The notes below the pieces were generated by a model that saw only the letters and a program-made list of their open reading frames with translations, did not search any database and was not told the origin of the DNA. Shown here piece by piece: positions 3,658-45,804 of a stretch of 64,000 bases of DNA. The DNA comes from an uncultured Aquimarina sp. Lineage in GTDB: Bacteria; Bacteroidota; Bacteroidia; Flavobacteriales; Flavobacteriaceae. Both the position numbers and the translations under genes were made by a program. Each line of letters opens with the position of its first letter. Within the stretch, counting starts at the first letter, position 1. The stretch covers positions 90,981-154,980 of the forward strand of contig CANMLL010000009.1 in NCBI GenBank assembly GCA_947498775.1, written 5' to 3'.

Positions 3658-4062
3658 TCAAATTTTTGGTCCTCTGAAAGATGTTCTTACCAACCGGTTG
3701 AACTCTTTTTTAAGAGGTTTAAACTCAACATTATGTTCAATACCTGCTTTTTTTAAAGCCGTTTTTACTATTTTCTGCTTTTTGTAGACTTTAATCCCTA
3801 TGATAATAAGTAGCCCTATAAAACCTAACAGAATAGTAACCATAGTTGTTCTAATGGTACTAATATCTGATACGCTATAATTATTTCCTGCAAAAAAAAG
3901 ATTATAAATTAAAACAGTACCAAGAAAACCAAAAATCACATATCGTACGTGTAAAGAGGATTTTTGATAATCGCCATATAGATCAAGTATGGCTTTTAAG
4001 TTGGATTCGGGTATTTTTTTGAGTAATTGAAATTGATTCTCCTGATTGGATGTATCCTTCAT
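3658..4062 (-). CDS. hypothetical membrane protein, 134 aa
   Basis: ATG ORF with two long hydrophobic segments and a basic C-terminus. Confidence 0.5.
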   Translation of the reverse strand: MKDTSNQENQFQLLKKIPESNLKAILDLYGDYQKSSLHVRYVIFGFLGTVLIYNLFFAGNNYSVSDISTIRTTMVTILLGFIGLLIIIGIKVYKKQKIVKTALKKAGIEHNVEFKPLKKEFNRLVRTSFRGPKI

Positions 4063-39598: not shown

Positions 39599-40459
39599 TT
39601 AATTAAATATTTCGTTGCAAGTGAAAACCTCTTTAAGGCGCACTCCTTTTTCTGTATGTTTTACTGTTATTATTTCGTTATGGGCATCATGCTCTAAAAA
39701 CAAATACCACCCATTATTGGCTGCATTTTCCAGAAATAATTTTTTTTCATCCAACGTTAACAATGGTCTTGTGTCATATCCCATTACATAAGGTAAGGGT
39801 ATATGGCCGGCTGTAGGCAGTAAATCTGCCATAAAAACTATGGTTTTATCCTTATAATCGATATGCGGAATCATCTGTTTTTCTGTATGTCCATTAGCAA
39901 ATAGTACGCCAAACCCTAGTTCTGATGTTTTTTGGAAGGTTTTATCCGTTCTGGAAATAAAATGCAATTGCCCGCTTTCTTGAATAGGCAAAATATTTTC
40001 TTTTAGAAATGAGGCTTTTTCGCGAGCATTTGGTACTACAGCCCATTGCCAATGTTCTTTGTTGCTCCATACCTTGGCGTTTTTGAATGCCAATTCATAC
40101 TGGGTTTTGCTGTCGTTCCATTGTACCACCCCACCACAATGATCAAAATGCAAGTGCGTTATAAATACATCGGTAATATCATCTCTATGAAAACCAGCTT
40201 TTTGTAATGATTTGTCCAAACTATCATCCCCCCACAATGAATAGTAGCTGAAAAACTTTTCAGATTGCTTGTCACCCATCCCAGAATCAATAAGAATCAA
40301 CCTGTCTCCATCTTCAATTAGCAAACATCGTGCAGCAATATCAATGAGGTTATTTTGATCAGACGGGTTTGTTTTTTGCCATAATGTTTTGGGCACTACA
40401 CCAAACATAGCGCCACCATCAAGTTTAAAATTTCCAGCTTTTATCGGGTATAAATTCAT
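39599..40459 (-). CDS. MBL-fold metallo-hydrolase
   Basis: 286 aa with the HLHFDHCGG metal-binding motif. Confidence 0.85.
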   Translation of the reverse strand: MNLYPIKAGNFKLDGGAMFGVVPKTLWQKTNPSDQNNLIDIAARCLLIEDGDRLILIDSGMGDKQSEKFFSYYSLWGDDSLDKSLQKAGFHRDDITDVFITHLHFDHCGGVVQWNDSKTQYELAFKNAKVWSNKEHWQWAVVPNAREKASFLKENILPIQESGQLHFISRTDKTFQKTSELGFGVLFANGHTEKQMIPHIDYKDKTIVFMADLLPTAGHIPLPYVMGYDTRPLLTLDEKKLFLENAANNGWYLFLEHDAHNEIITVKHTEKGVRLKEVFTCNEIFN

Positions 40460-42917: not shown

Positions 42918-43151
42918 ATGAAAAAACTTATGTATGTGGCAGTAGTTGCCTTAGCTCTTGGATTTACCTCTTGTGGAAGTGATGATGATGGTGGTTGTCC
43001 ATCATGTGATAACGGCCCTGTTAGTATATCCGTTTGTGACAATGGAGACGGTACTTACAGTATTGAAGGTGGTACTCCAATAGAAATTCCGGAAGGTCAA
43101 ACTTTTGATGACGTATTCGCACAAGCTTGTTCGTTTATTAGTGCTAACTAA
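42918..43151 (+). CDS. small cysteine-rich lipoprotein, 77 aa
   Basis: Lipobox FTSC plus four further cysteines in an acidic, Gly/Asp-rich mature peptide. Confidence 0.5.
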   Translation: MKKLMYVAVVALALGFTSCGSDDDGGCPSCDNGPVSISVCDNGDGTYSIEGGTPIEIPEGQTFDDVFAQACSFISAN

Positions 43152-43166
43152 AATTTTTCATTTTAG

Positions 43167-43210
43167 AAAAACAAGAAAAGTGACCTATTTGGTCACTTTT
43201 CTTGTTTTTT
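43167..43210. terminator. strong bidirectional terminator
   Basis: Perfect 19-bp stem aaaaacaagaaaagtgacc / ggtcacttttcttgttttt with a 5-nt loop. Confidence 0.85.
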
Positions 43211-43227
43211 AAAAGATACATCACGAT

Positions 43228-43626
43228 TTATATAAGTAACAATTCGTAAGGATTAGATATTGTTTTATGTCCAAATCGCTTTAATAGCTCAAACTCATTC
43301 GTTTTATCTATATTTTCGAGAGCTAGTTTATCTCTTATAGCTGGTTGTTTTAATCCAGGGATTCGAATTTTAAAAAAAGGCCACAAAGTTGTACTGGTAT
43401 ATTCACTGTCTAAATCTGGAAATCCAATTATGGGGTTATATTCCGTAGATTTTTTAAACTCTTCTGAGTATTCAAAGTTCCACAATCCCTTATTACAACG
43501 TAAGTAACCTACATCAATATCATCTACTTTTAATAAAAAAGTGGCCACAGCGTTTTTTGGAAGACTAACATCAGAATCTTCTTCGCTTTTGCTCAGCCAT
43601 TTTTTAATAAGATCTTTCATCATCAT
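43228..43626 (-). CDS. HipA N-terminal-subdomain-like (HipS-like) protein
   Basis: About 132 aa (ATG 43626; TTG 43629 is also possible). VATFLLKVDDIDVGYL... and LWPFFKIRIPGLKQPAIRDKLA...ELLKRFGHKTISNPYEL parallel the HipA N-terminal (couple_hipA) signature. It starts within 6 nt of the upstream kinase stop. Confidence 0.6.
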   Translation of the reverse strand: MMMKDLIKKWLSKSEEDSDVSLPKNAVATFLLKVDDIDVGYLRCNKGLWNFEYSEEFKKSTEYNPIIGFPDLDSEYTSTTLWPFFKIRIPGLKQPAIRDKLALENIDKTNEFELLKRFGHKTISNPYELLLI

Positions 43627-43631
43627 CAAGA

Positions 43632-44639
43632 TTATAGTTTTCTAATAAGCTCAAATCGTTTTTTTATAATATACAAAATTAATTCATTTCTCTCTATAAT
43701 AAAGAATCTTTTAAATTCTTTAACGTATAAATCAATAACTTTATTTTCGTTTTCAATAGATACTAACTCATCTATTAATGCCTTATAGATAGCATTGCTT
43801 TTTAATGATTTAATCAGCTCAAAGTGGTTGGCATTTTTATTCTTCTCAATACTTATTCGAGGTTTAGCATTATTAATATATTTATCAACCTTCATCCCGC
43901 CGTTCTTCTTCGCCTCAAAATATTTTTTAATAGTTTCATCACTAAAATTCCATAAAAGACCCCTTGCAGAATCATAAATTGGCGAAAACCTTGAAGAACC
44001 AGGAGATTTTTTCACCTTGCTAATTACACCCCAATTATAAAAGTGCCTATCATTATTGCCAACTATTGCATCAAAAGCAATCATTTTGATTAAATCAAAA
44101 ATTATTTCTTCATGAACCTTAGGAAAAATTACCCTAATGGCATCTTCTATAAATTCGAAACTAAATAGGTCTCTAGCAGTATCTACATTTTCAGCTATTT
44201 CTTTAGCCATTTCACTGTCATCCAAATACTGTCCGCATATTTCTGCTCCATGTATAAGTTGTTCATTAGATTTAAGAAAGTATTTACTCAAAAACCGAAT
44301 TTGTTTATTAATACAATAAAGCTTTGTTTCATTCATTTCTAAACCTATAGTCTCACCTATTTTGTTTATTACATACTCAATAACTGATTCATGAGGATAC
44401 CATTTTTCTGCAGATTTAGCAATATACGGAGTCCATGTTTTCAGATAGTTCTTTCTTATCCCACTATTTTTTTTATACTCATAAACACGTATAAACTCTT
44501 TTGGGGCATCACCGTCCAAATCATAATTTTTTACATAATAATGAGACTCCTTTAACAGAGGAATTTTATTTGAATCCTTTAGTTTGCCTGAATTATTAAG
44601 AGACTGTACTTTACTTAATTTTTTATCTAATATGCTCAA
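43632..44639 (-). CDS. HipA-like Ser/Thr kinase core (HipA_C-like)
   Basis: 335 codons with only a TTG start available. FDAIVGNNDRHFYNWGV is catalytic-loop-like and SPIYDSARGL resembles the metal-binding segment. Confidence 0.65.
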   Translation of the reverse strand: MSILDKKLSKVQSLNNSGKLKDSNKIPLLKESHYYVKNYDLDGDAPKEFIRVYEYKKNSGIRKNYLKTWTPYIAKSAEKWYPHESVIEYVINKIGETIGLEMNETKLYCINKQIRFLSKYFLKSNEQLIHGAEICGQYLDDSEMAKEIAENVDTARDLFSFEFIEDAIRVIFPKVHEEIIFDLIKMIAFDAIVGNNDRHFYNWGVISKVKKSPGSSRFSPIYDSARGLLWNFSDETIKKYFEAKKNGGMKVDKYINNAKPRISIEKNKNANHFELIKSLKSNAIYKALIDELVSIENENKVIDLYVKEFKRFFIIERNELILYIIKKRFELIRKL

Positions 44640-44781
44640 CTTTTTTAACCTTTGTTTTTAAAATATAACTCTTTATTAATATAGAATTAATTCCTTGTTC
44701 CAGATCACCTTTTAACTTAAAAGTATACAAAGTTTACTAATCCGATATTGTTATACATAGATAATAAATGACTGCAGCATC

Positions 44782-45804
44782 TCACTTTTTCTGTTTTATA
44801 ACATAAATGTACACCGGATAATGATCACTATATCCATCTGTAAAAGACCCATTACTAAAGCTTCTAAAAGGATATCCCTTATACTTACCCTTTTGGGTGG
44901 TTAGAAAGTCTTTATTAAAAATTCCTGCTTTATAATATCTATAGGATGTATAATCTTTGGTTAAAAACTCATTAGAAATAATAATTTGATCAAAAATCCC
45001 CCAGCTATCACGCCAGGCATGCGTACCAATGCCTTTTTTTGTCATCTTCAACATGGGGTTATACAACCCTTTTAAAGCTATGTTTTCTTTGTCTGATTTT
45101 GCGTCCAGAATCTTTTTTATACTCCGATCATTGGGATTGTCATTAAAATCTCCCATAGTGATAACTTTTGAATACGGATCAATGGCAAAAAGAGAGTCCA
45201 TGATTTTTTTGTTCAACTCGGCTGCTTTTTTTCTTTTGTATGTACTGCGCTCCTCTCCGCCTCGTCTGGATGGCCAGTGATTTACAATAATATGGATCAA
45301 ATCTCCATCCAGATATCCACTTGTTACCAGTTGGTCTCTTGTATATATTCTTTTATTACTGTTGTTATCATAAAGCACCAATTCATAGTTTTGTATATTT
45401 TTTGGTTTGAATATTGATTTTTGATATAACAACGCCACATCGATCCCTCTTCTGTCGGGAGAATCAAAATGTGCTATACCATAATTCTTTGTTGAAAGTG
45501 ATGGTTGATTCACAAGATCTTCCAATACCTTTCTGTTCTCAATCTCCGAAACTCCTATAACTACAGGTGAATTTTTAGCAACATCTGCGCCAATTTTTGA
45601 AATCGCGAGCGCCATATTTTCAAGTTTTTGCAAGTATACTTCCTCTGTCCTGACGTCATCAAATGTTATGGGGTCATTTTCTGCGTCAAAAAGATTTTCA
45701 AGATTATAAAACGCTATTGTTTGAATGTTATAGGTTTTCCTTCCCTGCGAAAAAAGATTAATAGAACATAGTACTGTAATAAAAAGTAACGCTCTCGAAT
45801 TCAT
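44782..45804 (-). CDS. secreted endonuclease/exonuclease/phosphatase (EEP) family protein
   Basis: Signal peptide MNSRALLFITVLCSINLFSQ. AFYNLENLFD, VNHWPSRRGG, MGDFND and GYSDHYPVY. Paralog of 24927..25898. Confidence 0.8.
   Translation of the reverse strand: MNSRALLFITVLCSINLFSQGRKTYNIQTIAFYNLENLFDAENDPITFDDVRTEEVYLQKLENMALAISKIGADVAKNSPVVIGVSEIENRKVLEDLVNQPSLSTKNYGIAHFDSPDRRGIDVALLYQKSIFKPKNIQNYELVLYDNNSNKRIYTRDQLVTSGYLDGDLIHIIVNHWPSRRGGEERSTYKRKKAAELNKKIMDSLFAIDPYSKVITMGDFNDNPNDRSIKKILDAKSDKENIALKGLYNPMLKMTKKGIGTHAWRDSWGIFDQIIISNEFLTKDYTSYRYYKAGIFNKDFLTTQKGKYKGYPFRSFSNGSFTDGYSDHYPVYIYVIKQKK

Follow-up and report, generated by a model that had tools for sequence, protein, structure and literature searches.

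A predicted HipA-family kinase and a downstream HipS-like protein form a conserved, accessory gene pair in Aquimarina and other Bacteroidota

We analysed a 64,000-nt stretch of DNA from an uncultured Aquimarina sp. (assembly GCA_947498775.1, contig CANMLL010000009.1, forward-strand positions 90,981 to 154,980), which we call the window and number from its first nucleotide. It contains two tightly coupled open reading frames (ORFs) on the minus strand, which a first-pass annotation, made from the sequence alone, had described as a HipA-type kinase split into two polypeptides. Both ORFs lie where that annotation placed them. They and the key residues of the first are as follows.

44639..43632, minus strand: gene for a predicted HipA-superfamily Ser/Thr kinase core of 335 aa, without N-subdomain 1, HipJ/HipI-like and CtkA-like (profiles, structure model).
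Within the kinase, N-lobe: glycine-rich loop L41-D-G-D-A-P-K47; candidate ATP lysine K75; helix-C E84/E88.
Within the kinase, catalytic site: catalytic loop G194-NNDRHFYNW203 (D197, N202); Mg-binding D223 in YDSARG.
43629..43228, minus strand: HipS-like gene, 130-133 aa, with the predicted fold of HipA N-subdomain 1 and without HIRAN (profiles, structure model).

The kinase gene can start only at a TTG codon, as first noted, because there is no in-frame ATG before residue 102, its first in-frame methionine. The ORF holds the segment FDAIVGNNDRHFYNWGV and the motif SPIYDSARGL. Pfam HipA_C (PF07804) matches residues 67-230 well above its gathering cut-off (43.4 against 30.5 bits; E = 4e-11), and the PADLOC model PDC-M03A matches over positions 46-273 of 280 (E = 9.7e-32). 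No model matched in a scan of NCBIfam, and the PDC-M66 models gave no match to the kinase at E <= 1. We compared an AlphaFold2 model of the protein (predicted local distance difference test score, pLDDT, 90.9; predicted template modelling score 0.90) with solved structures using Foldseek, which returned CtkA of Helicobacter pylori first (template modelling score, TM, 0.77), then HipT of Legionella pneumophila and Escherichia coli, and then HipA, at a probability of 1.00. CtkA was also the top match when the PDB was searched with a profile of the kinase family (E = 1.7e-7), and the stretches D197-R-H199-F-Y-N202 and Y-D223-SARG align with the CtkA motifs GNFDRHNGNWG and APIFD. In the model, a beta strand (34-37) leads into the loop, followed by a second strand (47-52), a third that carries K75 (70-76) and a helix with E84 and E88 (83-97). 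The L-D-G-D-A-P-K loop is acidic, has one glycine and is near-invariant; it was matched to the loop of HipA and HipT by position alone. The residue ahead of its leucine is variable, and the residue after that leucine is a conserved aspartate.

Across 64 kinase sequences, whose identity to the window protein is merely about 55-60%, there is no variation at D197, H199, N202, D223, K75, E84, E88 or G43-D44-x-P46-K47; D42 and A45 are nearly invariant (at least 90% of the sequences). Invariant catalytic residues in such divergent kinases indicate an enzyme under selection and not a relic. The family comprises more than 1149 clusters at 90% identity, with a length of about 335 aa. By profile and by model, the larger protein is thus predicted to be a catalytically intact HipA-superfamily kinase core, as the first-pass annotation had proposed.

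The smaller protein had been likened to HipA's N-subdomain 1, a likeness that also stands. Pfam Couple_hipA (PF13657) matches it above the cut-off (26.7 against 22.5 bits; E = 8e-6), while TIGR03071, a further profile suggested as a check, falls just short (26.4 bits, cut-off 27.8). PADLOC PDC-M03B matches at 6.8e-14 over positions 25-109 of 232, which is its N-terminal third only. An AlphaFold2 model (pLDDT 85) matches the HipS chains 7vkb_B and 7ab3_B (TM on target 0.80-0.81), as well as 7czo and the N-termini of HipA. The protein consists of one HipS-like domain and a short low-confidence N-terminal tail, and we found no second domain in it. Two traits mark its family: an N-terminal extension of about 25 aa (a helix, then an acidic low-confidence linker) and an invariant LWPFFxIRIPGLKQP motif. 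When the family was aligned by hhalign with the HipS-HIRAN protein of Clostridioides phage phiCDKH02, residues 24-112 of the phage protein aligned with a probability of 96.7%. Homologues form 410 clusters at 90% identity, of about 130 aa. A profile of the family found 330 clusters at 50% identity (E <= 1e-10); among the matches listed, nearly all are stand-alone proteins of 100-145 aa, and Pfam detected no HIRAN domain in the few longer relatives. The small protein is therefore best described, from profiles and model, as a homologue of HipS and of HipA N-subdomain 1.

The two genes nearly touch. The kinase ends with a TAA codon at 43634..43632, followed by "tc" and then by the candidate starts of the small gene, a TTG at 43629 and ATG codons at 43626, 43623 and 43620. 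The third ATG (43620) best fits both the N-terminus of the family and a 130-aa NCBI entry (P0121); depending on the start chosen, the spacer is 2-11 nt. To place the pair among its relatives, one genome per GTDB species was scanned, which gave 212 matches, and the best 80 of the 212 loci were analysed. These 80 are all from Bacteroidota, including Chitinophagaceae, Sphingobacteriaceae, Cyclobacteriaceae, Saprospiraceae and Flavobacteriales. The kinase-first order seen in the window holds in 78 of 78 assessable loci, with the small gene directly 3' of the kinase (in the other 2 of the 80, the contig stops at the kinase), and the two ORFs are separate in all 78 and fused in none. Intact pairs are spaced by -32 to +13 nt, most frequently -4, +1 and +2; the exception, locus L065, has a truncated kinase and a spacing of 187 nt.

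We also asked whether the pair might be an artefact, either one HipA gene disrupted by sequencing error or frameshift, or a pseudogene in decay. Nothing apart from the two domains lying side by side speaks for such an account, and we attach practically no weight to it. A single gene split in this way is excluded by the 78 loci, which keep an ORF of about 335 aa apart from one of about 130 aa, and by the cluster counts at those lengths (more than 1149 for the kinase, 410 for the small protein). The order, kinase and then N-subdomain, is the reverse of that in HipA, so no frameshift would restore HipA, and the catalytic residues are invariant. The two-gene split is real.

After clustering of all flanking ORFs at the related loci, no third conserved gene emerged. 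Nor do the upstream genes at 64 related loci show any recurrent helix-turn-helix (HTH) family, which agrees with the earlier remark that the pair lacks a HipB partner: in the window, no HTH protein is found in the 142-bp gap upstream of the kinase or among the immediate neighbours of the module. Divergence of the kinase correlates with that of the small protein (r = 0.80 over 2485 pairs; mean 0.49 for each). This correlation and the strict pairing indicate that the two genes are passed on and evolve together. Where the kinase has lost D42, three of four partners also lack K93, compared with 7 of 67 otherwise (Fisher p = 0.008, kinship ignored). Those three loci are the most divergent and the losses may be a single event; we take this co-variation as a weak hint that the two loops might be in contact.

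The prominence of CtkA in both the profile and the fold searches raises another account, in which the kinase would be an exported effector like that of H. pylori and the small protein its chaperone or immunity factor. By inspection only, neither the sequence nor the model of the kinase shows anything like a signal at the N-terminus or a secretion-sorting feature at the C-terminus. The partner has a HipS fold, and the relatives of the kinase range over free-living soil, water and marine Bacteroidota. We consider an effector of this kind highly improbable.

The pair lies within a segment that is missing from a near-identical genome (L081, GCA_947492435.1). The features that define this segment and its edges are listed below.

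43213..44781: inserted segment of about 1.57 kb, missing in L081 (blastn).
44782..44801: nuclease-proximal copy of an imperfect 20-nt direct repeat, which includes the stop codon of the Exo_endo_phos_3 nuclease gene (repeat search).
43193..43212: hairpin-proximal copy of the same 20-nt direct repeat, which makes up one hairpin arm (repeat search).
43162..43214: hairpin between convergent genes, whose arms (43162-43185 and 43191-43214) form a perfect 19-bp core and enclose a 5-nt loop (folding).
44640..44781, minus strand: AT-rich leader of 142 bp within the insert, 5' of the kinase (ORF, Rfam and promoter scans).

In blastn comparisons, window positions 51500-44782 and 43212-37193 are contiguous in L081 at 99.3% identity, and nothing between them matches. 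With flanks this similar and an empty site in L081, the window carries about 1.57 kb of extra DNA. At the empty site the nuclease gene enters the hairpin directly, its stop codon lying within the left arm, and a gene for a 77-aa protein follows 41 bp on. The direct repeats that bound the insert are identical at 17 of 20 positions and spaced by 1589; only one copy of this sequence occurs at the empty site. A second genome, L083 (75%-related), likewise has the empty arrangement. The G+C content over the pair is 0.26-0.31, compared with 0.35-0.41 in the flanks, so that the pair is indeed more AT-rich than its neighbours. The earlier suggestion of a small acquired island thus agrees with both the empty site and the low G+C content. 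We favour gain by insertion because of this low G+C content, the two relatives without the module and the varied contexts of the pair elsewhere; an exact loss of the module from the relatives, by deletion from one repeat copy to the other, is the less likely alternative.

The hairpin itself needs a different reading. The first-pass annotation had treated it as the terminator that closes the island, and its perfect 19-bp stem does follow the pair. Since the empty site of L081 already contains this hairpin, however, the structure belongs to the neighbouring genes and is borrowed by the insert, outside the island. It is probably a bidirectional terminator: it folds at -28.3 kcal/mol (z = -7.35), and none of 200 shuffled sequences was as stable. 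A simple terminator scan missed it, probably because its stem is AT-rich. The possibility that it is a repetitive extragenic palindromic (REP)-like repeat was set aside, as no further copy occurs in the window.

Small differences from L081 were seen at both edges of the insert. The hairpin loop (43186-43190) is reverse-complemented, reading AAATA in the window and TATTT on the same strand of L081, while the stems are identical. This suggests that the palindrome was inverted or rebuilt, possibly in connection with the insertion. At 44790-44791 the window and the empty site differ by an AG/GA swap, with a change at the nuclease C-terminus (...KQEK to ...KQKK), and the density of mismatches near these positions is far over the 0.7% background. 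Homologous recombination from a divergent donor is not favoured; mismatches to L081 are evenly distributed (about 6 per kb), and neither junction shows a divergent tract.

Other cargo occurs at or near this site. In L082, whose nuclease is 77% identical, a lanthipeptide cluster (Lant_dehydr_N/C and LANC_like; L082:3351-7361) occupies the same gap between the nuclease and Na+/H+ exchanger genes, which indicates that the site tolerates cargo. Accessory genes appear to have landed repeatedly in this intergenic gap. L083 has a hicA/hicB pair (L083:886-1524) between the acetyltransferase and DUF5689 genes that is missing in L081, a second small toxin-antitoxin (TA) insertion or deletion nearby.

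The leader presumably holds the promoter of the module. Its ORFs are only 22-35 aa long, leaving no room for a regulator, and Rfam found no family in it beyond sub-threshold hairpin look-alikes. A scan for sigma-70 promoters did no better than chance; by pattern alone, one Bacteroidetes-like TTTG / TAnnTTT[GA] pair lies near 44731/44725. The neighbours of the module are the Exo_endo_phos_3 nuclease (44782..45804), a 77-aa protein without a Pfam match (42918..43151) and a Na+/H+ exchanger. Most named relatives of the nuclease come from Aquimarina.

Two further features of the window are unrelated to the pair or lie apart from it. Between 44782 and 50318, the nuclease gene adjoins genes for a 960-aa CarboxypepD_reg-domain protein and a DUF5689 protein, the last two on the plus strand and the nuclease divergent from them; this arrangement is kept in L081 and L083 and has no relation to the kinase pair. 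At 39599-40459 (minus strand) a chromosomal gene encodes a 286-aa protein of metallo-beta-lactamase fold (Lactamase_B). It has orthologues in L081 and L083, and the L081/L083 orthologue also matches PF23023, Anti-Pycsar_Apyc1, which is named after phage cyclic-nucleotide phosphodiesterases.

Across the related loci, the genomic contexts of the pair are heterogeneous. In individual cases, the pair directly adjoins genes of type IIG or type I restriction-modification, Mokosh, NucC, AbiLi or PDC-S31/S37, which gives a defence role circumstantial support. No match to the kinase was found in a plasmid collection, and a phage collection gave one distant match only, of the hipIN type (a kinase gene followed by a HipS-HIRAN gene).

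Some of these loci deserve separate mention. In three Cyclobacteriaceae loci (L033, L034 and L080), a same-strand gene of 1200-1290 aa ends (at about 3965-3975) 3-16 nt from the kinase start or overlaps it. Type IIG restriction-methyltransferases account for three of the upstream neighbours in the set and may be these very genes, in which case the pair would be embedded in a restriction-modification operon. The temperate Clostridioides difficile phage phiCDKH02 (L086:2884-4473; PP767789.1 1415-3004) carries, between integrase and ImmA/IrrE-XRE genes, a full hipIN / PDC-M03 pair whose HipA-domain and HIRAN-domain proteins are 289 and 235 aa long. This placement, too, is circumstantial support for a defence role. 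Two IMG/VR contigs classed as viral (L084:2713-4126 and L085:5959-7372) encode a kinase of 337 aa and a small protein of 131 aa with 41-42% identity to those of the window. There is little phage signal around the pair, whose neighbours match no PHROG other than one for DNA repair and a transposase-like one; instead of phages, the contigs may be integrated elements.

These contexts bear on the idea that the pair is a pure addiction module, which would stabilise itself or adjacent DNA by post-segregational killing and have no part in phage defence. The two-gene layout on accessory DNA is classically TA-like, and relatives carry other cargo in the same spot or neighbourhood (the lanthipeptide cluster of L082, the hicAB pair near it in L083). 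The window pair, however, stands alone amid housekeeping genes with no mobile element to stabilise, and some relatives adjoin restriction-modification, Mokosh or NucC genes, while the HIRAN version adjoins a phage integrase and ImmA/IrrE. On balance, pure addiction seems improbable.

We instead prefer, with a probability of roughly 0.55, the reading in which a toxic kinase is kept in check by its HipS-like partner, as part of a TA or abortive-infection module. For binding, inhibition, toxicity, target and trigger, we infer the following course of events. The first gene encodes a core Ser/Thr kinase predicted to be catalytically intact, and the second, translationally coupled to it, a detached N-subdomain-1 (HipS-like) protein. 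This small protein may dock on the N-lobe of the kinase beside the glycine-rich loop, much as HipS docks on HipT, and so hold the kinase inactive. Loss, titration or displacement of the partner would leave the kinase free to phosphorylate an essential target, probably a translation factor such as an aminoacyl-tRNA synthetase, and growth would be arrested. Phage infection and loss of the module are possible triggers. HipS is known to bind HipT at the glycine-rich loop and thereby to neutralise it (PMC10627512), and the stand-alone HipS proteins of E. coli O127 and Legionella are both antitoxins (PMC10627512, PMC9325769).

Several observations weigh against such restraint by the partner. The module lacks a DNA-binding autoregulator and has the presumed antitoxin as its second gene, and on each count it departs from a typical type II TA system. 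In HipA, the same domain is fused to the kinase and is not inhibitory. The glycine-rich loop of the kinase contains D42 and D44 rather than the Ser/Thr autophosphorylation sites of HipA and HipT, and with a conserved aspartate in that place regulation may differ. The window pair is surrounded by housekeeping genes and not by a defence island. Finally, the Trp65 wedge of E. coli HipS (E-G-W) is not conserved in the small protein. In a phmmer alignment with Haemophilus influenzae HipS, the sole sequence alignment to a solved HipS, EGW stands opposite Q94-P95-A96, after a 3-residue insertion; at the site of the wedge, the family has an invariant P-G-L-K-Q-P and a loop longer by 3 residues. Trp65 is not universal among HipS proteins (PMC10627512).

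Some of these points also suit what we regard as the main rival, an obligate two-subunit kinase. Here the small protein would complete the HipA fold as a structural or activating subunit, stabilising or activating the kinase or selecting its substrate, and the whole would act as a regulated signalling or stress kinase or as a one-piece effector triggered elsewhere. The model of the small protein matches the N-termini of HipA, where its counterpart is joined covalently to the kinase without inhibiting it, and the wedge is missing. Translational coupling and strict 1:1 co-inheritance would suit a stoichiometric holoenzyme, and there is no transcriptional autoregulator. On the other side, both of the characterised stand-alone HipS proteins are antitoxins (PMC10627512, PMC9325769), the patchy, mobile, low-GC and insertion-polymorphic spread of the pair is typical of TA or defence cargo and not of housekeeping signalling, and the related hipIN type is a defence candidate in PADLOC. 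We consider the two-subunit kinase possible, if unlikely.

A further and rather unlikely reading can be sketched. The Bacteroidota clade could be a minimal, regulator-free abortive-infection system in which the HipS-like subunit itself senses phage, for instance through its family-specific N-terminal tail or its PGLKQP loop. Instead of Ser autophosphorylation, the acidic, phosphomimetic-like D42/D44 loop of the kinase might be clamped by the basic residues K93 and R88 of the partner, a logic unlike that of HipBA or HipBST.

To our knowledge, the HipA kinases studied so far (HipA, HipT and YjjJ) all have an HTH partner or an HTH domain, while the HTH-less, kinase-first types (hipJS, hipIN and hipL) are known from sequence analysis alone; we also know of few TA or defence systems that have been studied in Bacteroidota. 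A partner that acts as antitoxin or sensor without the Trp wedge, on a kinase without autophosphorylation sites, would widen the view of how HipA-family kinases are restrained. Should this not be true, the pair would be one more annotated HipA-domain pair. The two genomes with flanks 99.3% identical, which differ by the 1.6-kb module, provide a natural experiment. The pair is a reasonable experimental target, though one that would not surprise a specialist.

Among known systems, HipBST (E. coli O127:H6, Legionella pneumophila, Haemophilus influenzae) resembles the window pair in keeping the kinase (HipT) separate from an N-subdomain-1 protein (HipS). The model of the small protein fits HipS chains at the TM values given above, and that of the kinase matches HipT. 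The window pair is nevertheless not HipBST, because it has no hipB, its order is reversed (kinase and then HipS) and the S-psi-S autophosphorylation motif is replaced by L-D-G-D in the kinase. It differs further in that the small protein lacks the Trp65 wedge and has an extra N-terminus of about 25 aa, and in that the kinase is nearer to CtkA than to HipT. Nor is it a canonical type II TA system, because the partner has no DNA-binding domain.

CtkA (JHP0940; PDB 3AKJ, 3AKK and 3AKL), a secreted proinflammatory kinase according to its PDB title, is the closest solved kinase by profile and by fold. A GN-DRH--NWG catalytic loop, an (I/Y)-(F/Y)-D Mg site and a C-terminal helical bundle are common to both, although their identity is merely about 17-18%. 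PDC-M66, or "DS-6", is likewise a module of two genes with a short HipA-like kinase at its core and also occurs in Bacteroidota, but its partner is a DUF3037 protein and not a HipS-like one. The HipA-like kinase and DUF3037 pair has been reported as a stand-alone phage defence system (PMC12548924), which lends a defence role of the window pair further circumstantial support.

A related type is hipIN, or PADLOC PDC-M03, in which the kinase comes first and the partner opens with a HipS-like domain; both window proteins match the PDC-M03A and PDC-M03B models. The phiCDKH02 pair matches PDC-M03 at full length (A 5.5e-140, B 1.3e-109), its HIRAN protein spanning positions 1-229 of B. In contrast, the window partner lacks the C-terminal HIRAN half and spans only about positions 25-110 of the 232-262 profile positions, and the window kinase covers 46-273 of 280 positions at 1e-31, compared with 5.5e-140 for the phage protein. 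In PADLOC, PDC-M03 is a "phage defence candidate" and not a validated system.

The layout had been called unexpected, which does not hold, since it already has published names, and PADLOC has models for the hipIN type. Gerdes, Baerentsen and Brodersen (2021, mBio 12:e01058-21) sorted HipA homologues into ten gene organisations (PMC8262856). The part of their survey drawn on here places two kinase-first bicistrons in clade XI: hipIN, with a HipS-HIRAN partner (14 modules), and hipJS, with HipS only (2 modules of 1,239) (PMC8262856). They speculated that hipJS derives from hipIN by loss of HIRAN and proposed neutralisation by HipS for hipJS, with no experimental work listed for clade XI (PMC8262856). 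In the portion of their tables consulted, no Bacteroidetes name appears (PMC8262856). The first-pass description of an uncharacterised system therefore stands in one sense, as the literature searched yielded no published experiments on hipJS, hipIN, HipL or PDC-M03, but not in the sense of an unrecognised one.

The window pair shares with hipJS a short kinase without N-subdomain 1, a HipS-only gene downstream and the lack of an HTH/HipB gene. It differs in the length of the kinase, which is 335 aa in the window and 279-321 aa in HipG, HipI, HipJ and HipM (PMC8262856), and in the loop of its clade, L-D-G-D-A-P-K with no conserved Ser/Thr ahead of it. What is new beyond the 2021 survey and PADLOC is the abundance of the HipS-only type, which is far commoner than the two published modules, at least across Bacteroidota, together with the divergent loops of the kinase and of the HipS-like protein and a pair of occupied and empty sites with defined boundaries. 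Judged by its architecture, the window pair fits the definition of hipJS, as a HIRAN-less relative of hipIN / PDC-M03.

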